Positions 1 to 12,433 of a stretch of DNA of 21,210 nucleotides are shown here, piece after piece. Origin of the DNA: a phage. The stretch's first letter is position 1. The number at the start of each line of letters is the position of its first letter. The notes below the pieces were generated by a model, which had not been told where the DNA came from, did no database searches, and saw nothing but the letters and a program-made list of their open reading frames with translations. The translations under genes and the position numbers were made by a program. The DNA is taken from assembly GCA_012690745.1 (NCBI GenBank), contig GCA_012690745.1_4086.5. One strand, given 5' to 3'.

Positions 1-207
1 TTTGATAAAGAAGAATTTGATAGCATCAAAATGCTAAAGAATTTATGTAACAATAAAAAGAATATGCATATATCAGAATTTGTTGCTTTGTATTTTTATT
101 TAAAAAGTTCATTGTATATGAACACGATGCAAAGATTCGATACTAGAATTAATGTATTCACCGATAAAGAATTTTATATATACGATAAATTCTTAGATAA
201 GGTTTAA
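1..207 (+). CDS. 3' end of an upstream gene, hypothetical protein (partial)
   Basis: Open frame from window edge to TAA at 205..207 (…NVFTDKEFYIYDKFLDKV*); stop lies 1 nt before the next ATG, consistent with the operon packing seen elsewhere. Confidence 0.45.
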   Translation, partial: FDKEEFDSIKMLKNLCNNKKNMHISEFVALYFYLKSSLYMNTMQRFDTRINVFTDKEFYIYDKFLDKV

Positions 208-208
208 T

Positions 209-706
209 ATGACAACTGTTTATATTGATAAACGATTAAATTTATTGATTACCGATTCTAGAGTTACGTCAACTATACCACGAAACTTATTTGGTTTTTT
301 CCCACTAAGACCAAAATATCAATATGGAGTTGTTAATCAAAAAACTTTATATGTACATGACCGTTTATTCAGTGCTAGTGGGTCAGTAAGTGAAATTGAT
401 AAAGTACTGGATTGGTTAATTAATAAAGTACCAGTTATACCTGACAGAAAGTTAAGTTGCCATTGTGTGCTTCTTTCTAAAGATTATGTTATTCATATGA
501 TTTTAACTAAAGGAAAGTTTATTAAAAAACTTGAATATCTACATGAAGACTACACTTTCTTTATGGGTAGTGGTGGAGAATACATGCTAGATGCTGCTAT
601 TCATGAAGAACATACAACTTTATATGATAAAGTGTTTAGTACTTTCATGGATGTGCATAACCATGATTGCTTCACAGATGATAATATTAATGTATATCGA
701 TTTTGA
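209..706 (+). CDS. HslV/ClpQ-like (proteasome beta-type Ntn-hydrolase fold) protein
   Basis: 165 aa. N-terminal MTT (Thr directly after Met as in HslV), internal SASGSV and a GSGG motif (FFMGSGGEY) spaced as in E. coli HslV (AGFAGGT … IAIGSGGPY), and similar overall length. Motif-level similarity only. Confidence 0.6.
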   Translation: MTTVYIDKRLNLLITDSRVTSTIPRNLFGFFPLRPKYQYGVVNQKTLYVHDRLFSASGSVSEIDKVLDWLINKVPVIPDRKLSCHCVLLSKDYVIHMILTKGKFIKKLEYLHEDYTFFMGSGGEYMLDAAIHEEHTTLYDKVFSTFMDVHNHDCFTDDNINVYRF

Positions 707-727
707 TTTCGTCATTAGGAGATGTAA

Positions 728-1693
728 GTGAAAAAGCTTGATTTAAATACAATTGCCGAAGAAGTTCTGGATGAATGTTTTGCTAATGAAGAAGTCAACA
801 CACTAGAAGCCTTAGATTTCGTTGAAGATAAAGATGAAAATGAAGGTAAAGTACAAAGCAGTTTCAAATATAATATTACACTTAAGCGACCACCAAATGT
901 TTCCAATGAAGATCTAATTCGTGATATTCAAGCTGGTATCAATGTAAAGAAAAACACTGAACTGTTAGTTCGTTACAATTATGGACTTATTATTGATGTA
1001 GCAAGTAAATGTACTTGTTATATCCCATTTGAAGATAAGATTTCATATGGTGTTGAGGGGTTCATGAGAGCACTAAAAACCTTTGATCTTAATAAGAATG
1101 TTAAGTTCATTACCTATGCTTCTTCTAGTATTTACATGACAGTTTATAACGAAAGTTCTGACGCTAACTATATGGTACACTTCCCACGTTATATGAGTGT
1201 TCATAAGATCAAAGTAAAAAGATTCTGCCAGGAATATATGCGTAAACATGGTGTTCGCCCAACTCCTGAAATAATCTCAGAGGGTACTGGGATTGAGATT
1301 CAGCATGTTAATAACTGTTTGTTATTTCAAAGCGAATACACTTCTCTGGATGCACCATTAGACGGTGTTACCGATGGTACACTAGGTGACATTATTCATT
1401 CACCTGCTTCTGATTTTAACCTCAATGTTGATAGTATTCGTGCACCTTTACGTTATGCTATCAATGAACTGACTAACGAATTGAGTACTAAAGAACGTGA
1501 GATTATCCATCGTGTTCATGGTCTAGGTGAATATGAACCTGAAACGCTTCGTGAGATTGCTGATAATGGTTTTGTTGATGATAATGGAAAATATGTTAAA
1601 TCCCGTTCATCAATACATCGAAAGTACAGTGAAGCTATGCAAAAGCTTAAGAAGCTAGTACTTGCAAAAGGGTACGAATACGAAGATTTCTAA
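728..1693 (+). CDS. sigma-70 family RNA polymerase sigma factor
   Basis: GTG start 7 nt after AGGAG (716..720). Acidic N-terminus; region 2 (LVRYNYGLIIDVASK … YGVEGFMRALKTFD … FITYASS); region 3 (FPRYMSVHKIKVKRFCQEYMRKHGVRPTPEIISE, cf. sigma70 IPVHMIETINKL…GREPTPEELAE); region 4 HTH (LSTKEREIIHRVHGL … TLREIADNG … RSSIHRKYSEAMQKLKK). Confidence 0.85.
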   Translation: MKKLDLNTIAEEVLDECFANEEVNTLEALDFVEDKDENEGKVQSSFKYNITLKRPPNVSNEDLIRDIQAGINVKKNTELLVRYNYGLIIDVASKCTCYIPFEDKISYGVEGFMRALKTFDLNKNVKFITYASSSIYMTVYNESSDANYMVHFPRYMSVHKIKVKRFCQEYMRKHGVRPTPEIISEGTGIEIQHVNNCLLFQSEYTSLDAPLDGVTDGTLGDIIHSPASDFNLNVDSIRAPLRYAINELTNELSTKEREIIHRVHGLGEYEPETLREIADNGFVDDNGKYVKSRSSIHRKYSEAMQKLKKLVLAKGYEYEDF

Positions 1694-1700
1694 AGAAAAA

Positions 1701-1727
1701 AGGTTGGCTTATGCCAACCTTTTTTTA
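1701..1727 (+). terminator. intrinsic terminator (variant of the repeated hairpin module)
   Basis: aggttggc-ttat-gccaacct followed by a 6-T run, immediately after the sigma factor stop codon. Confidence 0.7.
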
Positions 1728-1747
1728 TGGGATGAAGTAAAAGTTTG

Positions 1748-1756
1748 TGATATAAT
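1748..1756 (+). promoter_or_regulatory. extended -10 promoter (TGaTATAAT)
   Basis: tgaTATAAT at 1748..1756 with no good -35; predicted start near 1763 would drive the ORF-free segment downstream. Confidence 0.45.
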
Positions 1757-1762
1757 TATCTT

Positions 1763-2250
1763 GTACAATTCTGTTGGCATGATATTCATGTACCTGATCC
1801 ACTCGAAAACGTAGAGGGCAGTTGAGCAGTCCGACAGTGCGAACAGCAAAAGAAACCCGTTAGATGTGGGCATAGTTTGAACCCCTCACGGCAATGCGGC
1901 TGTATAAAGAACCACGTTAGGATAGCTGGTGGTTCCTTGATAGACATATAAGGATAACACCTTACGAATTATCTAAGGGAGAGTTATCGAATTTTGTACA
2001 GGAAAGTTGCGTCCAAAATTTGAGTACTCACATTAAGTATTTGATTGCATAGATACTTAATGAAGATACACTATGTTTAAAAGTGTAGACCGTCATATGA
2101 AACTGAAGTAGAGAGAAACAGGATGACCCGCTTTCGCACTCGTTATGAGTAATCTTCAATGCAATAGCTCTGATACCATCAGCGTCAAATTTCCCTCCTT
2201 GTGGGGGGAAGAAAAATCCCTTCCTCAAATCCCGTCAATATTAAAAGTCC
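1763..2250 (+). ncRNA. candidate structured non-coding RNA (family unknown)
   Basis: No + strand ORF longer than about 11 codons. Visibly more GC-rich than flanks (1800..1960). Perfect inverted repeats at 1909..1935 (gaaccac/gtggttc), 2031..2062 (cattaagtat/atacttaatg), 2191..2210 (ttccctcc/ggggggaa). Bounded by promoters on both sides. Confidence 0.3.
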
Positions 2251-2279
2251 TTGACAGTTATTGATCATTCGCGTAGAAT
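2251..2279 (+). promoter_or_regulatory. sigma70-type promoter TTGACA-17-TAGAAT
   Basis: TTGACA 2251..2256, 17-nt spacer, TAGAAT 2274..2279; upstream of the 2344..3569 operon. Confidence 0.6.
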
Positions 2280-2343
2280 ACGTAGTATTAGAAGCGAACA
2301 GACATCTCGAAGAGATGGATGATTAACCATTAAGGAATATCCA

Positions 2344-2553
2344 ATGAATTCAGTAATCTTTTTAGTAGTCGCTTTCTCTGTTAATTCCGGTATACAAATA
2401 ACCCCAATGAATTCCATGAATCAATGCATAGCAGTACGTGATAGTACATACGAACAAGTAAACAAAGATATTTGGATTACAGTTAATAAAGAACAAATGT
2501 GGTGTTACAATAGTAATACTAACACAAAGCTTATTGTAGGACAAACTCAATGA
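2344..2553 (+). CDS. hypothetical small protein with hydrophobic N-terminus
   Basis: ATG start; stop overlaps next start (ATGA at 2550..2553). MNSVIFLVVAFSVNSG resembles a signal or membrane anchor. Confidence 0.55.
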   Translation: MNSVIFLVVAFSVNSGIQITPMNSMNQCIAVRDSTYEQVNKDIWITVNKEQMWCYNSNTNTKLIVGQTQ

Positions 2554-2780
2554 GTTATGGTGTTCGTTTTGAGATTCGTTCTATTGTCATCGATGCAGAG
2601 AAACAAGTATCGTTAGATGGTGATATACGTGAAATTTATCTATCATGTATCCGTGCGAAATCTGAAGCAGATGCCTTAGTACAAATGTATAGTTTTAACT
2701 TTTCAAATGGATTCTATTTGGTACGAGTTGTTGAAGTTAAAAAAGTAATTCTTGGTTGTTGCATAGAAGGAATAATGTAA
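2550..2780 (+). CDS. hypothetical protein
   Basis: Translationally coupled on both sides (ATGA upstream; TAA then ATG at 2781). Confidence 0.55.
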   Translation: MSYGVRFEIRSIVIDAEKQVSLDGDIREIYLSCIRAKSEADALVQMYSFNFSNGFYLVRVVEVKKVILGCCIEGIM

Positions 2781-3569
2781 ATGAGCACTATCGATGAACT
2801 GATTCAACGGAATTCAAAATATTACCAACCATCAGAAATTGTGGATAACATTACTAAATCTGAGTTTGGACCGAACACACGCAAACTCATTCATGTAATG
2901 TCACGTGATGGCTTTAAATGTGATTGTTGTGGTGAATCAAATGTAGTATTCACTTTACACAAGCACAGTACTAAAGAACGTTATAAATTCAGACCTTATG
3001 TACTTAAAGGGAAACGCCTTGTACGCATGACGTTAGACCATAATGTACTGGACTGTCTTCAGGGCGGTAATGATAAAGAGAACATGACTGCACTGTGTGA
3101 AGATTGTAACGCATTACGCCAGCATAAGTTTGCTGAATACAGTGAGTTTAAACACTGGTATCATAACGCGGATCGTTCAATCGAGCCTGACGTTAACTAC
3201 TGCTTCATTGAGTACATTAAGAATGCCAAAGATACATACATTCTTAAATCAATGTCACCTATTACCGTGTTTCCTGAGAACCTATTCACTACATTAAAGA
3301 ATAGTTTTATTGTAGGTGATATTGATGCATTCAAGTATTTTGACAAAGGTGCAAAACATTTTGAAATTCAATGTCTTAGTACTGCACTATGTGAACTCAT
3401 TAAAATTTACATAAAAGAGTATTTGGGTATTGACAATGTACGTGTACCAGAGTATACTTTTTCTATTGAATTCGATTGTGAATCAATCAAAGAGTTTGGA
3501 ATTCTTTTCAATAAACAAATAGAACTTGCAATTCAAAACGAAATCAAGTACTATACTACTAACATTTAA
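2781..3569 (+). CDS. HNH-family endonuclease
   Basis: CDCCGES … MTLDHNVLDCLQGGNDKENMTALCEDCNALRQHK: DH-N, GG, N, Cys pairs and terminal H-K in the order typical of the HNH nuclease motif; C-terminal ~150 aa unassigned. Confidence 0.8.
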   Translation: MSTIDELIQRNSKYYQPSEIVDNITKSEFGPNTRKLIHVMSRDGFKCDCCGESNVVFTLHKHSTKERYKFRPYVLKGKRLVRMTLDHNVLDCLQGGNDKENMTALCEDCNALRQHKFAEYSEFKHWYHNADRSIEPDVNYCFIEYIKNAKDTYILKSMSPITVFPENLFTTLKNSFIVGDIDAFKYFDKGAKHFEIQCLSTALCELIKIYIKEYLGIDNVRVPEYTFSIEFDCESIKEFGILFNKQIELAIQNEIKYYTTNI

Positions 3570-3584
3570 TCAGAGGAAATTATC

Positions 3585-3767
3585 ATGCAAATCATCATTC
3601 TTATCGTTGGTATCATGTTGGGTGTTTATGGTCACTCATGGATGAACGAGAAGTTTCCTAATACGCGTCCTGAATATTGCAGTACTAATGTATTCCAGAA
3701 TGGTGAGAAACCAAAGGAAAGCATTGGTAAAAAGTTGGACAAAGTACTTGATGTAATCAACGAATAA
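3585..3767 (+). CDS. hypothetical small protein with N-terminal TM segment
   Basis: GAGGA 7 nt upstream of ATG; MQIIILIVGIMLGVYG hydrophobic N-terminus. Confidence 0.5.
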   Translation: MQIIILIVGIMLGVYGHSWMNEKFPNTRPEYCSTNVFQNGEKPKESIGKKLDKVLDVINE

Positions 3768-4545: not shown

Positions 4546-4854
4546 ATGTTTCAAACTAACACTCAAGGTTTTGTAATCATCGATTTGAACCAAAACAGCG
4601 GTTATTGGATGAAACCTACTGACGCATGTATGCAGTTTGATTTTTTAGGTTACAGGATTAGTGTAAGTACTGGTGCTTCTGTACTGAGAGGTGGTTGTAT
4701 CGTTGAACATCTGGTAACTGATCCAGAAGGTCGTGAGTATGAAATCGCAGGTTCAGTACAAGATGCCATTATGTTTGTATGTCAGCGTGAAATGAATGGT
4801 TCGAATTCAAATGCACTGACTCATGCTCTTTCTCAAGAAGTGGAGGTTCGTTAA
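4546..4854 (+). CDS. hypothetical protein
   Basis: GAGGA 7 nt upstream; first gene of a long coupled operon (TAATG overlap with next gene). Confidence 0.65.
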   Translation: MFQTNTQGFVIIDLNQNSGYWMKPTDACMQFDFLGYRISVSTGASVLRGGCIVEHLVTDPEGREYEIAGSVQDAIMFVCQREMNGSNSNALTHALSQEVEVR

Positions 4855-6110: not shown

Positions 6111-6311
6111 ATGTTTACTTTATATCTCGCAGTAGTTCTCACCAATGGTGAAATCACTCGTACTATTGGTGAAGGTGTATATAAAACACCAGACCAGTGC
6201 TACTCTGCTACTCATTGGCCTCGCGATAGTGGGGATGAAACTCGCACTGAATTCAAATGCATGAAAGTAAAAGGTGATTTTGTTAACCTTAAGGTTATCG
6301 AGGCGAAATAA
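6111..6311 (+). CDS. hypothetical small protein with hydrophobic N-terminus
   Basis: Track ORF starts at TTG 6054; in-frame ATG 6111 with AAGG 8 nt upstream is preferred (MFTLYLAVVLT…). Confidence 0.5.
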   Translation: MFTLYLAVVLTNGEITRTIGEGVYKTPDQCYSATHWPRDSGDETRTEFKCMKVKGDFVNLKVIEAK

Positions 6312-6826
6312 TGGATATTAATGAGTTGTTGATCTTATTGTTTAATCGTGGAAATGATGTAAGACGTTCTGAATATCAAGACAAAATTCACATTGAAACT
6401 GATAAATGTTATGGTAAAACAACTCATGAGATTTTGAAGCCAAATGGCAAACGATATGCCGATGTATGTTTTCATGAACGAAGTGATGGTAGTGAAATAA
6501 TCAGTACTGAAATTGTGTTTTATGATAGATCCTCGGCAGGTTCGTATGAAATAGAACTTATATATTGTCCTGGTTCAGAAACACACAATAAACGTCAGAT
6601 ATTATATGATGTTTATTCACCTCCAGGTGTAGCTGAATATTTTGTTATTGATTACAGTACTGAAGAAAGTGTGTTTCAACAGAGCTTGATTCATAACTTC
6701 CAGTTGAATGATCCAAATGTACCAAAGTTGTTCAAACTACTCGATACTATCGATGTTGATTTTGAATTTGTTATGTGCATTAGAACTTCCTTGATCGATG
6801 AATTTATGGAACTACTTAATATATGA
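6311..6826 (+). CDS. hypothetical protein
   Basis: TAATG coupling; 171 aa. Confidence 0.65.
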   Translation: MDINELLILLFNRGNDVRRSEYQDKIHIETDKCYGKTTHEILKPNGKRYADVCFHERSDGSEIISTEIVFYDRSSAGSYEIELIYCPGSETHNKRQILYDVYSPPGVAEYFVIDYSTEESVFQQSLIHNFQLNDPNVPKLFKLLDTIDVDFEFVMCIRTSLIDEFMELLNI

Positions 6827-11285: not shown

Positions 11286-11579
11286 ATGATCAGTACTTCA
11301 GTTAATGAAAGCATCGTCGCTGACGTAGAAATGGTTAAAGAATGTGCAGATGAAACTCTTCGTGATATGTACATTAATGATTTAATTACTGAATACGGTA
11401 GTCGTGGTGTACACGAATTTATTCGTTTAAGTGGAGAGTTGATGAAAAATCGAATTCGTATGAAGCTTAACGTACATCCAAAAGCATGGGCATTTACATT
11501 AAAATACGCAGAAGATATTGTTAATTTGCGTCGAACTGAAGTATATGAACGTTTGCACAATGGTATGTTAGATAAATGA
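11286..11579 (+). CDS. hypothetical protein
   Basis: AAGG upstream; 97 aa. Confidence 0.6.
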   Translation: MISTSVNESIVADVEMVKECADETLRDMYINDLITEYGSRGVHEFIRLSGELMKNRIRMKLNVHPKAWAFTLKYAEDIVNLRRTEVYERLHNGMLDK

Positions 11580-11588
11580 TTGTAAAAT

Positions 11589-11618
11589 AGGAATTCTTAA
11601 ATGAATTCCTTTTTGTTT
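11589..11618 (+). terminator. intrinsic terminator
   Basis: aggaattc-ttaaat-gaattcct hairpin followed by tttttgttt. Confidence 0.6.
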
Positions 11619-11631
11619 ATAAGGTATAGTA

Positions 11632-11853
11632 ATGAAATATATAGTACTTGTACTGATATTATTCAGTACTGTTGTAAGTGCTAAACAAAAAGAATATGTT
11701 AAATGTATAAATTATGAAGAGAAATATGTTGAAACATATAAAAAAAGTATAATTAAAAACGTTTCGATTACTAACAGAGCAACAATCATTGTACTTAAAA
11801 ATGGGTTAATTATGCTATATAAACCACACGTTAAATGTGAAATTATTAATTGA
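11632..11853 (+). CDS. putative secreted small protein
   Basis: AAGG 7 nt upstream; MKYIVLVLILFSTVVSA signal peptide; very AT-rich. Confidence 0.55.
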   Translation: MKYIVLVLILFSTVVSAKQKEYVKCINYEEKYVETYKKSIIKNVSITNRATIIVLKNGLIMLYKPHVKCEIIN

Positions 11854-11860
11854 GGAAATT

Positions 11861-12433
11861 ATGAATCGTAAAGGTCGTTTTAAAGTATCAAAAAAGAACA
11901 AAAGTTCTAGGTTTAAACCTATTGTTTTAACAGTTAAATCTAACAAAGATTTAACTGCACTTAGTAAAAAGATAATTTCATCTAAGATTGAAGTATCATA
12001 CGTAAATTCATTAAAATATATGAATGTTAAACCACTGGACCAACTCATTTCACTTATATTTGAACGTAATGATTTTGAGATATCAGTAGATGATTATAGA
12101 GCCTATAATGCTGGTTTCATTAATGTTACTTGTAATAAAAAACTAACTGAGTTGGAAAATTTGTCATGTATAATAAATCTAGATAAAGGTGTTGTGAAGT
12201 ACCATTTTGTACATTTCACTAATATCAATAATGGAATGGGTGTACAATCCAGACCTATAGTGCCTACGTGTGATGTTACTAAATTAGCAAAGCTCAATGA
12301 TGAAGAATATTTTCAAGAAAGCATTGTAACTGAGCATTTAGATGATATAATAGCTACTTACAAAGAATGCATATGGGTGTTGAATGCTATAAAACCTAAA
12401 TTGTGTTTAATGAATATTGTTCGTGATTTATGA
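11861..12433 (+). CDS. hypothetical protein
   Basis: Track start 11837 overlaps upstream gene; ATG 11861 follows GAGGA. Lys-rich N-terminus; very AT-rich. Confidence 0.6.
   Translation: MNRKGRFKVSKKNKSSRFKPIVLTVKSNKDLTALSKKIISSKIEVSYVNSLKYMNVKPLDQLISLIFERNDFEISVDDYRAYNAGFINVTCNKKLTELENLSCIINLDKGVVKYHFVHFTNINNGMGVQSRPIVPTCDVTKLAKLNDEEYFQESIVTEHLDDIIATYKECIWVLNAIKPKLCLMNIVRDL

Follow-up and report, generated by a model that had tools for sequence, protein, structure and literature searches.

The stretch of DNA analysed here (the window) is 21,210 nucleotides long (contig GCA_012690745.1_4086.5 of assembly GCA_012690745.1) and derives from an E. coli jumbo phage of the 121Q/Sharanji type (Asteriusvirus). 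The features of the locus are as follows.

1..207, plus strand: 3' part of the upstream gene, equal to 121Q gp165 (139 aa) and Sharanji gp184.
209..706, plus strand: proteasome-like (HslV-family, H2-less) Ntn-hydrolase gene, 165 aa, equal to 121Q gp166 and Sharanji gp183.
212..214, plus strand: codon of Thr2, predicted to act as N-terminal nucleophile after loss of Met, aligned with HslV Thr1.
254..256, plus strand: codon of Asp16, aligned as the counterpart of proteasome/HslV Asp17; invariant.
260..331, plus strand: extended beta-hairpin (residues 18-41) between the Asp16 strand and Lys45, predicted by two models.
341..343, plus strand: codon of Lys45, counterpart of the catalytic Lys33, aligned with HslV Lys33.
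380..382, plus strand: codon of Gly58 (in SASGSV), aligned as the counterpart of the oxyanion-hole Gly (HslV Gly48, proteasome Gly47); invariant.
566..577, plus strand: G120-S121-G122-G123, counterpart of HslV GSGG; the GSG is invariant.
665..667, plus strand: codon of Asp153 in a C-terminal D-x-(Y/F)-(T/S)-(D/N)-(D/N) motif; invariant.
717..721, plus strand: AGGAG ribosome-binding site of the sigma gene, seen by inspection of the sequence within the 21-nt spacer.
728..1693, plus strand: sigma-70-family phage sigma factor, 321 aa, with a GTG start, equal to 121Q gp167.
1695..1726, plus strand: intrinsic terminator closing the putative operon, GGTTGGC-TTAT-GCCAACC followed by T7, found by direct folding.
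2251..2279, plus strand: sigma-70-type promoter TTGACA-17-TAGAAT (11/12) of the next transcription unit, outside the feature and marking its boundary.

The two main ORFs of the preliminary description are both present, the first with its MTT, SASGSV and GSGG motifs, and the gap between them is short and free of terminators as described there, with no stable structure in 690-735. The stop codon of gp165 lies 1 nt ahead of the ATG of the proteasome-like gene, and the product of 1..207 aligns to positions 82-139 of phrog_37211 (E 1.2e-35). A conserved upstream partner of gp166 was considered and rejected, as each sub-clade has an unrelated gene immediately ahead of the start codon and the position of gp165 upstream of gp166 is not kept outside its own sub-clade. 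The downstream protein belongs to the sigma-70 family, with regions 2, 3 and 4: Pfam Sigma70_r3 is matched at E 2.2e-9 (37.7 bits, cutoff 25.3), and r2 (23.0 bits, cutoff 24) and r4 (22.7 bits, cutoff 24.1) both fall just under their cutoffs. It also matches phrog_351 (E 5e-60) and is annotated as a sigma factor in many records. A scan found no tRNAs in the window, and the ORF-free stretch 3' of the sigma gene, compared with Rfam, gave only sub-threshold, terminator-like matches.

In Sharanji (L013, 6133-6161), a perfect sigma-70 consensus promoter, TTGACA-17-TATAAT, lies three genes upstream and is followed by five genes in the same direction; no convincing terminator precedes the end of the sigma gene. 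The genes for gp166 and sigma are the fourth and the fifth and last of this putative early-type operon. The closing terminator at 1695..1726 has a dG of -20.3 kcal/mol and a z of -6.4, and none of 200 shuffled sequences folds equally well (0/200); it was overlooked by the consensus terminator scan. Judged from this layout, transcription of gp166 and sigma on one message is plausible in phages of the 121Q type, and the co-transcription proposed earlier stands to that extent. It does not extend to RaK2, Munch and the metagenomic relative contig L007, where intrinsic terminators separate the gp166 homolog from the sigma gene. The promoter consensus matches suggest that gp166 is expressed early. 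For the related phage CBB, an early sigma region has been proposed (PMC5259590).

Adjacency of the gp166 and sigma genes is found across Asteriusvirus, the RaK2 group, the Munch group and Hallingskeid, and record counts of the two genes are identical for Escherichia, Klebsiella and Salmonella. Since the genomes are broadly collinear, this retained adjacency is weak evidence. Mimasviruses possess the sigma gene and no gene of the gp166 type, and a search for a divergent copy near the Mimasvirus sigma gene, in which the family HMM was run on ORFs from all six frames at the loci of CBB and XbC2, gave no match. Distant gp166 homologs have no sigma neighbour. The pairing with sigma that had been thought suggestive is thus contradicted by the terminators in RaK2, Munch and L007, by the sigma-only Mimasviruses and by the sigma-less distant homologs; gene order points to a weak link, one of neighbourhood, confined to one clade. 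A seeming case of natural uncoupling in Ecwhy_1, said to be without a sigma factor (PMC13070987), was rejected as an annotation artefact, the sigma ORF being intact.

The gp166 family is found in 52 phage records and in metagenomic contigs with phage gene content. Its range comprises only Rak2-like jumbo phages and a few phages of ~140 kb, and an exhaustive search with a profile of the 16 closest sequences gave only 17 representatives. Conservation of gp166 across jumbo phages of Escherichia, Klebsiella, Salmonella and Erwinia and in metagenomes implies purifying selection. The protein is labelled 'hypothetical protein' in nearly all of its 52 records, and no published biochemistry or expression work on this family or on any PPH-type protein was found in the literature.

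An HMM search had been suggested as a check of the HslV/proteasome-beta-like reading, and in it gp166 falls below the curated Pfam and NCBIfam models of HslV and the proteasome. The window protein has no match to NCBIfam TIGR03692, PRK05456 or Pfam PF00227; across the family, the HslV models (TIGR03692/PRK05456) reach an E of about 0.06 at best, in 1 of 28 members, and PF00227 a best E of 0.0013, in 3 of the 28. Neither phmmer nor the family HMM gave a proteasome match among PDB sequences, sequence-only searching being too weak for this family, and when hhalign was run with the family on one sequence at a time, it returned probabilities of 11% for E. coli HslV and 1.6% for pSal ORF1. Such single-sequence comparisons were uninformative until a profile was built from 59 relatives of pSal-SNUABM-04 ORF1 within phrog_1040, which serve as a proxy for the PPH group and are not the authors' own alignment; the PPH cluster representative of Fuchs et al. 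2021 is WP_042125023.1. Against this profile of compact phage homologs, the gp166 family profile aligns over its full length with 96.1% probability (E 3.6e-9, 145 columns), and E. coli HslV with 97.1% (E 6e-11), with a gap on HslV H2. In addition, phrog_1040 is matched by 19 of the 28 family members. Plain HMM searches fail to connect the gp166 family with the compact phage homologs, the HMM of the 59 sequences scoring gp166 at E 0.4. On these comparisons, which use the proxy alignment, gp166 appears better placed in a narrow, divergent, little-studied phage lineage beside the compact H2-less PPH-like homologs.

Fold predictions with two models, together with a fold search, identify gp166 as an Ntn hydrolase of the proteasome/HslV type (MEROPS T1), with the alpha-beta-beta-alpha sandwich of the proteasome and with HslV as the best structural match; the structure prediction recommended at the outset thus confirms the Ntn-hydrolase fold. 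Helix H1 spans residues 60-72, and both models show coil at 73-83, so that H2 is absent. H1, H3 and H4 are kept, H3/H4 being the ring-ring face. In the alignments, the HslV segment ~70-92 has no counterpart in either the gp166 family or the compact phage homologs. Both models contain the strands of the hairpin (18-27 and 31-41), with a pLDDT of 89-92 in the second. Within the hairpin lies an insertion of 13-25 residues that is particular to the gp166 family and missing, in the joint alignment, from HslV and the compact phage homologs. Of the HslV/proteasome-beta-like reading, the proteasome/HslV-type Ntn hydrolase stands, and an HslV orthologue does not, given the scores below the curated models, the missing H2 and the hairpin. 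Loss of H2 and insertion of the hairpin might block ring formation. Fuchs et al. 2021 caution that changes of such a kind may yield other quaternary structures (PMC8665760).

Conservation was scored over 28 gp166 homologs, with identities down to 19%, and the residues were put in register with E. coli HslV by a joint alignment that included the compact phage homologs. M1-T2-T3 is unchanged in all 28, and removal of the initiator Met ahead of Thr is in keeping with the specificity of methionine aminopeptidase. Lys45 is kept in at least 90% of the homologs and lies 13 residues from the oxyanion Gly, the same distance as in HslV. The GSG lines up with that of HslV and that of the phage homologs. 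Asp153, which may be equivalent to proteasome Asp166, pairs with Asp145 in the compact phage homologs, a nearly invariant position. Conservation of Thr2 and GSGG had been named as a test of the original proposal, and Thr2, the Lys and the GSG are indeed kept in all or nearly all homologs. At the sequence level, the catalytic set of gp166 (Thr2, Asp16, Lys45, Gly58 and GSG) is intact. Alignments and models together suggest that gp166 is a small, probably active threonine peptidase of the proteasome/HslV superfamily.

Absence of H2 is a stated hallmark of PPH/RPC, and no AAA+ partner was reported for any new proteasome homolog group (Fuchs et al. 2021, PMC8665760). PPH-like proteins come from tailed phages or prophages, and gp166 is likewise phage-borne; both have an MTT N-terminus without a propeptide. 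Both keep Thr1, Asp17, Lys33, the oxyanion Gly and GSG, both lack H2, a C-terminal D-x-x-T-(N/D/G)-(D/G) motif is common to both, and neither has a dedicated AAA+ partner. The gp166 family differs in its length of 165-183 aa, against about 140 for the PPH-like proteins, so that its members are not compact subunits of that kind, and in its hairpin insertion between Asp16 and Lys45, PPH-like proteins having no insertions. HslV, in turn, shares with gp166 the MTT N-terminus (in E. coli) and GSGG. HslV possesses both helix pairs, H1/H2 and H3/H4, whereas gp166 lacks H2; the segment around HslV Lys28, a contact of the HslU tail, is a longer hairpin in gp166; and hslU is usually found in the same operon as the HslV gene, whereas gp166 has no hslU nearby or in the genome. 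HslU docks on the H1/H2 face of HslV, which is nearly inactive without HslU. HslV is built as two hexameric rings (a dodecamer) and becomes active when the C-terminal tails of HslU are inserted.

BPH and Anbu, which have no known unfoldase, keep both H1 and H2, unlike gp166. The pore loop of BPH is long and acidic, Anbu has an H5 coiled coil at its C-terminus, and both are cellular, whereas gp166 is viral. Connectase, a protein of methanogenic archaea, lacks H1 and H2 and has an S3/S4 insertion made of two helices; gp166 has H1, its insertion is a beta-hairpin and its range is enterobacterial phages, and it does not belong to this group. The 121Q genome encodes a second protein of the same superfamily, gp475, of the mainstream 'peptidase HslV family' (phrog_1040), which is also found in T5-like Epseptimaviruses. 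It possesses N-terminal Met-Thr, AGD, K-V-F and VGSG motifs, and its 198 aa would be sufficient for H1 and H2. It matches phrog_1040 at E 1e-23 against 1.3e-6 for gp166, and its type occurs in 197 phage records against 52 for the gp166 family. No cross-match between the two was found by tblastn or HMM, and they are not obligate partners, since 2 Klebsiella records have gp475 and 10 have a member of the gp166 family.

The absence of an HslU-like ATPase from the window, noted at first, is true and holds for the complete 121Q genome as well, in which the best tblastn match to HslU falls in the P-loop of gp581, a ClpA-like protein (E 3.6e-4). HslU matches are present in only 4 Escherichia phage records, against 33 carrying the gp166 gene. 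Elsewhere, 121Q encodes ClpS, two ClpP-like proteins and the unfoldase gp581 in addition to gp475; gp581 has a ClpP-type docking loop and neither HbYX nor an HslU-type tail. No dedicated activator of gp166 was found. An AAA_28 protein beside the distant homolog P0032 was considered as an unfoldase and rejected, as it is a NadR-like NMN adenylyltransferase/kinase adjoining a PnuC transporter. The 121Q protein gp563 is a borderline, MoxR-like AAA protein. DnaJ-like and GroES-like proteins are also encoded by this phage.

The best overall explanation, which we favour with somewhat better than even confidence, is that gp166 is a compact, catalytically competent threonine peptidase of a PPH-related phage lineage, probably with an early function. 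Removal of Met would expose Thr2 as the N-terminal nucleophile, aided by Asp16, Lys45, Gly58 and the loop formed by G120-S121-G122. In analogy to HslV and BPH, gp166 would probably form rings through its retained H3/H4 face. The H1/H2 face that meets HslU would be remodelled, with H2 missing, and the hairpin would stand at the S3/S4 insertion site by the active site, so that substrate access and choice are probably intrinsic or governed by a partner other than HslU. Since gp166 lies behind a host sigma-70 consensus promoter, in a putative operon with a phage sigma factor, its function is most likely in early host takeover or proteome remodelling, where it may belong to a phage proteolysis kit of unusual richness. 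A very doubtful extension is a minimal, self-contained early proteasome of Rak2-like phages, in which the hairpin would serve as gate and substrate selector instead of an unfoldase and action on the transcription machinery encoded nearby, such as processing or turnover of the phage sigma or of a host sigma or anti-sigma, would drive the early-to-middle switch.

Functional replacement of HslV, with a hybrid of gp166 and host HslU degrading sigma32, sigma70 or the phage sigma and thereby timing transcription, is unlikely. It would accord with the established degradation of sigma32 by HslVU in E. coli, with HslV as the best structural match, with the retained MTT and GSGG, and with the sigma adjacency and equal record counts in the Asteriusvirus, RaK2, Munch and Hallingskeid genomes; the phage, moreover, has no HslU of its own yet supplies adaptor-type parts for host machines (ClpS). 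Against this, H2 is missing from the very face that contacts HslU, the Lys28 segment has become a longer hairpin, in RaK2, Munch and L007 terminators part the two genes, Mimasviruses retain sigma only, distant homologs lack it, and no AAA+ partner was reported for the new proteasome homolog groups (Fuchs et al.). The same surface, the least HslV-like part of gp166, makes it highly improbable that gp166 acts as a decoy or inhibitor by mimicking HslV, titrating host HslU or capping host HslV rings so as to shut down host HslUV and protect phage proteins, with catalysis irrelevant. Other proteostasis-interfering parts in the phage (ClpS, DnaJ-like, GroES-like) and a promoter type suggestive of early expression would suit such a role, but a pure decoy would not need catalytic residues that are invariant or nearly so at 19-30% identity.

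A non-degradative Ntn enzyme, such as a highly specific processing peptidase, a connectase-like transpeptidase/ligase or an amidase acting on one phage or host substrate, is rather unlikely. In this case gp166 might be a monomer or small oligomer, with the hairpin insertion as a specificity lid. Connectase, however, is archaeal and lacks both H1 and H2, the gp166 insertion is a beta-hairpin rather than two helices, the closest sequence relatives of gp166 are of group I (HslV/PPH-type) and the H3/H4 ring-ring face is kept. As for the idea that an unrelated small phage protein matches the motifs by chance, the lack of Pfam, NCBIfam and PDB sequence matches and the 11% hhalign probability against single HslV might suggest it, but the fold search, profile-profile comparison, PHROG matches and residue conservation concordantly refute it, and its likelihood is negligible.

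Phage proteasome homologs were recognised in 2021, and bioinformatically only. The present comparison would allow gp166 to be re-annotated as a proteasome-like (HslV-family) peptidase in place of 'hypothetical protein'. A connection with sigma would be interesting, though the comparative data give it no support. If the minimal-proteasome reading were true, it would give a viral proteasome homolog its first assigned function and would amount to a regulatory proteasome that works independently of an ATPase. Small, confidently modelled and with an intact catalytic set, gp166 is a tractable case in cultivable phages of E. coli K-12 (Sharanji, 121Q), and its loss of H2 and active-site-proximal hairpin lead to testable predictions on ATPase independence and substrate gating. 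With gp475, the ClpA-like unfoldase, ClpS and the ClpP-like proteases alongside gp166, these phages are a good system for the viral rewiring of bacterial proteolysis.

The window derives from the 121Q/PBECO4/Sharanji type of E. coli jumbo phage (Asteriusvirus), among the Rak2-like phages. Its first base corresponds to 121Q position 88540, and bases 1-3600 are 99.6% identical to 121Q 88540-92139 and 99.5% identical to Sharanji. The 165-aa HslV-like ORF with its MTT, SASGSV and GSGG motifs and the sigma factor ORF are both present as first described:

Upstream gene, 121Q gp165: truncated at the window edge, its stop ending 1 nt before the HslV-like ATG
209..706, + strand: HslV-like ORF, 121Q gp166, 165 aa, MTT start, SASGSV at residues 55-60, GSGG at 120-123
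728..1693, + strand: sigma factor ORF, 121Q gp167, GTG start, 321 aa
1695-1726: intrinsic terminator after the sigma stop, dG -20.3 kcal/mol, z -6.4 by folding

The spacer between the two ORFs contains an AGGAG ribosome-binding site and is 21 nt long, not 22 nt as in the preliminary description, which was right about the missing terminator: the spacer folds with no excess structure over shuffled controls (z -0.47). The terminator after sigma was missed by a consensus scan and found by direct folding. An ATG-TAA minimal ORF (722-727) lies between the AGGAG site and the sigma GTG start and could influence translation initiation of sigma. Beyond the terminator, about 620 bp (1727-2343) carry no annotated gene, give solely sub-threshold, terminator-like matches in Rfam and are closed by a near-consensus sigma-70 promoter (11/12, 2251-2279); gaps of this kind also come after sigma in fEgEco12 (L001 7490-8150), RaK2 and the metagenomic relative L007. 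Just downstream of the sigma operon lies a 262-aa ORF (2781-3569) that records of 121Q and relatives annotate as HNH endonuclease; it probably represents a mobile gene for a homing endonuclease within the early region.

Direct sequence searches are near-blind to the proteasome/HslV kinship of the 165-aa protein. Pfam, NCBIfam and PDB sequence searches returned no match, and PHROGs returned its own family, phrog_24804, labelled unknown function. A second, weak PHROGs match was to phrog_1040 (E 1.3e-6), labelled 'peptidase HslV family'. The curated HslV and Proteasome thresholds are reached by no family member. The family is narrow, with 52 phage records identified by tblastn (Escherichia 33, Klebsiella 10, Salmonella 8, Erwinia 1) and just 17 members when 1.84 billion representative proteins were searched exhaustively with a profile. 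In CMSTMSU (MH494197.1, 185609-185996) the gene matches in two pieces across two annotated ORFs, covering 68% of the protein; this copy may be a pseudogene or reflect a frameshift from sequencing. Among 28 aligned sequences, with identity down to 19%, M1, T2, T3, D16, T20, G58, G120, S121, G122 and D153 do not vary, with T15 and K45 kept in at least 90%. Thr2 and the GSG of GSGG, at the positions set beforehand as a test, are thus conserved.

Structure prediction yielded a proteasome-type fold of identical topology in two models, one from 16 sequences (pLDDT 82.7) and one from the 28-sequence alignment (pLDDT 94.7, pTM 0.85), with S. aureus HslV as the best Foldseek match. In a joint alignment, T2, D16, K45, G58 and G120-S121-G122 are in register with HslV Thr1, Asp17, Lys33, Gly48 and GSG. 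The models and alignments together establish the proteasome/HslV fold and the catalytic residue inventory.

The label 'HslV-like' therefore holds for fold and catalytic residues but not for bona fide HslV, which is ruled out by the sub-threshold scores, a missing H2 counterpart and a hairpin insertion. Whereas HslV has an H1/H2 helix pair, both models show a single helix (60-72) followed by coil (73-83), and the HslV segment at about residues 70-92 is without counterpart in the family. Unlike HslV, the family also carries 13-25 extra residues between Asp16 and Lys45, confidently modelled as a long beta-hairpin (residues 18-41). Fuchs, Alva and Lupas (2021, PMC8665760) described 22 new groups of proteasome homologs, for all of which no AAA+ partner and no informative gene context were found. 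The closest group appears to be their H2-less phage proteasome homologs (PPH), compared here through a proxy built around pSal-SNUABM-04 ORF1, a 157-aa phage protein (phrog_1040 E 2.5e-36), for which 200 relatives were collected and 59 aligned. These 59 are mostly 140-170 aa long, with M1, T2, T3, D14, K30, G53, G118 and G120 invariant. The family matches this proxy end to end (96.1%, E 3.6e-9, 145 columns), and the proxy matches E. coli HslV (97.1%, E 6e-11) with its alignment gap exactly on H2. Because of these profile matches, the H2 loss and the hairpin, the protein is best placed within the HslV-centred group I, as a sister of the compact H2-less phage homologs that has diverged and bears a hairpin.

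The preliminary description found no HslU-like ATPase in the window, and a local search of the complete 121Q genome likewise found no HslU, the best match being the P-loop of gp581 (E 3.6e-4). The proteolysis and chaperone-type genes of 121Q are:

298257-300545: gp581, ClpA-like unfoldase
gp48: ClpS adaptor
gp49 and gp457: DnaJ-like
gp464 and gp473: ClpP-like
gp58 and gp615: annotated 'chaperonin' and 'GroES-like', respectively
KM507819.1 219356-219952 (121Q locus L018, 23356-23952): gp475, second HslV-family gene, 198 aa, phrog_1040 E 1e-23

By its domains (AAA, AAA_lid_9, AAA_2 at 2.4e-49, ClpB_D2-small), gp581 is a genuine two-ring ClpA-like unfoldase. With a docking loop of the ClpP type (RSIGMSG) and a C-terminus that has neither an HbYX nor an HslU-type tail, it looks made for ClpP. 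A further AAA protein, the MoxR-like gp563, is borderline. The Clp system is near-complete (unfoldase, ClpS, two ClpP-like proteins) and the proteostasis kit unusually rich for a virus. Erwinia and Salmonella chimalliviruses with phrog_1040 proteins, unlike 121Q, also carry HslU-like genes. gp475, which adjoins gp473 and has MT-, AGD, KVF and VGSG motifs, represents the widespread phage 'peptidase HslV family', with 197 phage records including T5-like Epseptimaviruses. Only 2 of these are from Klebsiella, against 10 for the family studied here, so the two are not obligate partners. Two proteasome-type paralogs per genome raise the question of mixed versus separate assemblies.

The suggested pairing with sigma fails on comparison. 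The gene order is kept in RaK2, Munch, Hallingskeid and L007, but two small ORFs intervene in Hallingskeid, and clear intrinsic terminators separate the genes in RaK2, Munch and L007. Of the 79 records with sigma, some come from Mimasviruses (CBB, GAP32, XbC2) and from phages of Serratia and Yersinia; in these the HslV-like gene is missing and sigma is preceded by an HTH regulator instead. The family HMM found no match at the CBB and XbC2 sigma loci. Distant homologs (≤24% identity) have no sigma nearby; the genes around them encode a NadR-like enzyme or proteins without assigned function. The genes abutting the HslV-like start codon are unrelated across sub-clades. On these terminators, solitary sigma genes and sigma-free homologs, the adjacency reads as clade-limited synteny in broadly collinear genomes, and functional pairing is unsupported.

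Several features of these loci were observed in passing. In L007 (1230-1370) a TTGACA-17-TATAAT promoter is followed about 75 nt on by a strong terminator (GGAGGC-GAA-GCCUCC-U6), which could specify a short non-coding transcript or attenuator upstream of sigma. Stretches of 1.2-1.5 kb with no annotated gene precede the Mimasvirus HTH regulator (CBB L023 1795-3019, XbC2 L024 1457-3027), also with no family HMM match. In L009 (8557-12005) the distant homolog P0032 directly precedes a 667-aa NadR-like protein (nicotinamide-nucleotide adenylyltransferase and AAA_28 kinase domain); four genes beyond lies a PnuC-type NMN transporter (11313-12005), which makes this a phage NAD-salvage module. The absence of sigma reported for Ecwhy_1 in the fEgEco12 paper is an annotation artefact: an intact 322-aa gene (L022 3521-4489) is annotated merely as misc_feature in the UNVERIFIED record MH791411.1.

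Co-transcription with sigma remains plausible in the 121Q type, though not exclusive to the pair. Sharanji (L013) has three perfect TTGACA-16/17-TATAAT promoters (12/12; 2925-2952, 4771-4799, 6133-6161) within 3.3 kb, each intergenic and on the coding strand. From the last, five co-directional genes (gp186, gp185, gp184, the HslV-like gp183 and the sigma gene gp182) run to the terminator; the sole match of a terminator scan inside this run (6473-6489) folds no better than shuffles. Consensus host-type promoters imply early expression, and the pattern fits an early block driven by host RNA polymerase, in agreement with the early timing proposed for the sigma region of CBB, a related phage (PMC5259590).

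Because the full catalytic set stays invariant amid highly divergent sequences, the protein is probably an active N-terminal-threonine hydrolase. As in E. coli HslV, Thr2 should be uncovered by methionine aminopeptidase, and Met removal would leave it as the nucleophile. The retained H3/H4 pair, the ring-ring contact surface in proteasomes (PMC8665760), makes ring assembly plausible. Changes to the H1/H2 face and the active-site-adjacent S3/S4 hairpin would disfavour classical HslU docking and may provide intrinsic gating or specificity. Among the rival readings, a hybrid that pairs the protein with host HslU and acts on sigma factors is improbable. The connectase specificity element is located at the same S3/S4 site (PMC8665760), and a connectase-like enzyme of specific processing or ligation is the least unlikely alternative, though still doubtful. 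A pure decoy would not need the invariant catalytic set and is rather less probable than either, and chance resemblance, given both the fold and the residue register, can practically be dismissed.

Phage proteasome homologs are already known as a class from the 2021 bioinformatic survey, and no experimental work on any viral member was found in the literature. Two GenBank records label the gene HslV or 'ATP-dependent protease' and almost all others 'hypothetical', while 121Q gp475 has had a ClpYQ-like label since deposition. The sigma pairing, which had made the finding look special, does not stand; models and alignments point instead to a distinct structural variant, H2-less with a hairpin insertion and invisible to Pfam and NCBIfam, and the HslV-like gene is a real, testable predicted enzyme in a tractable phage.
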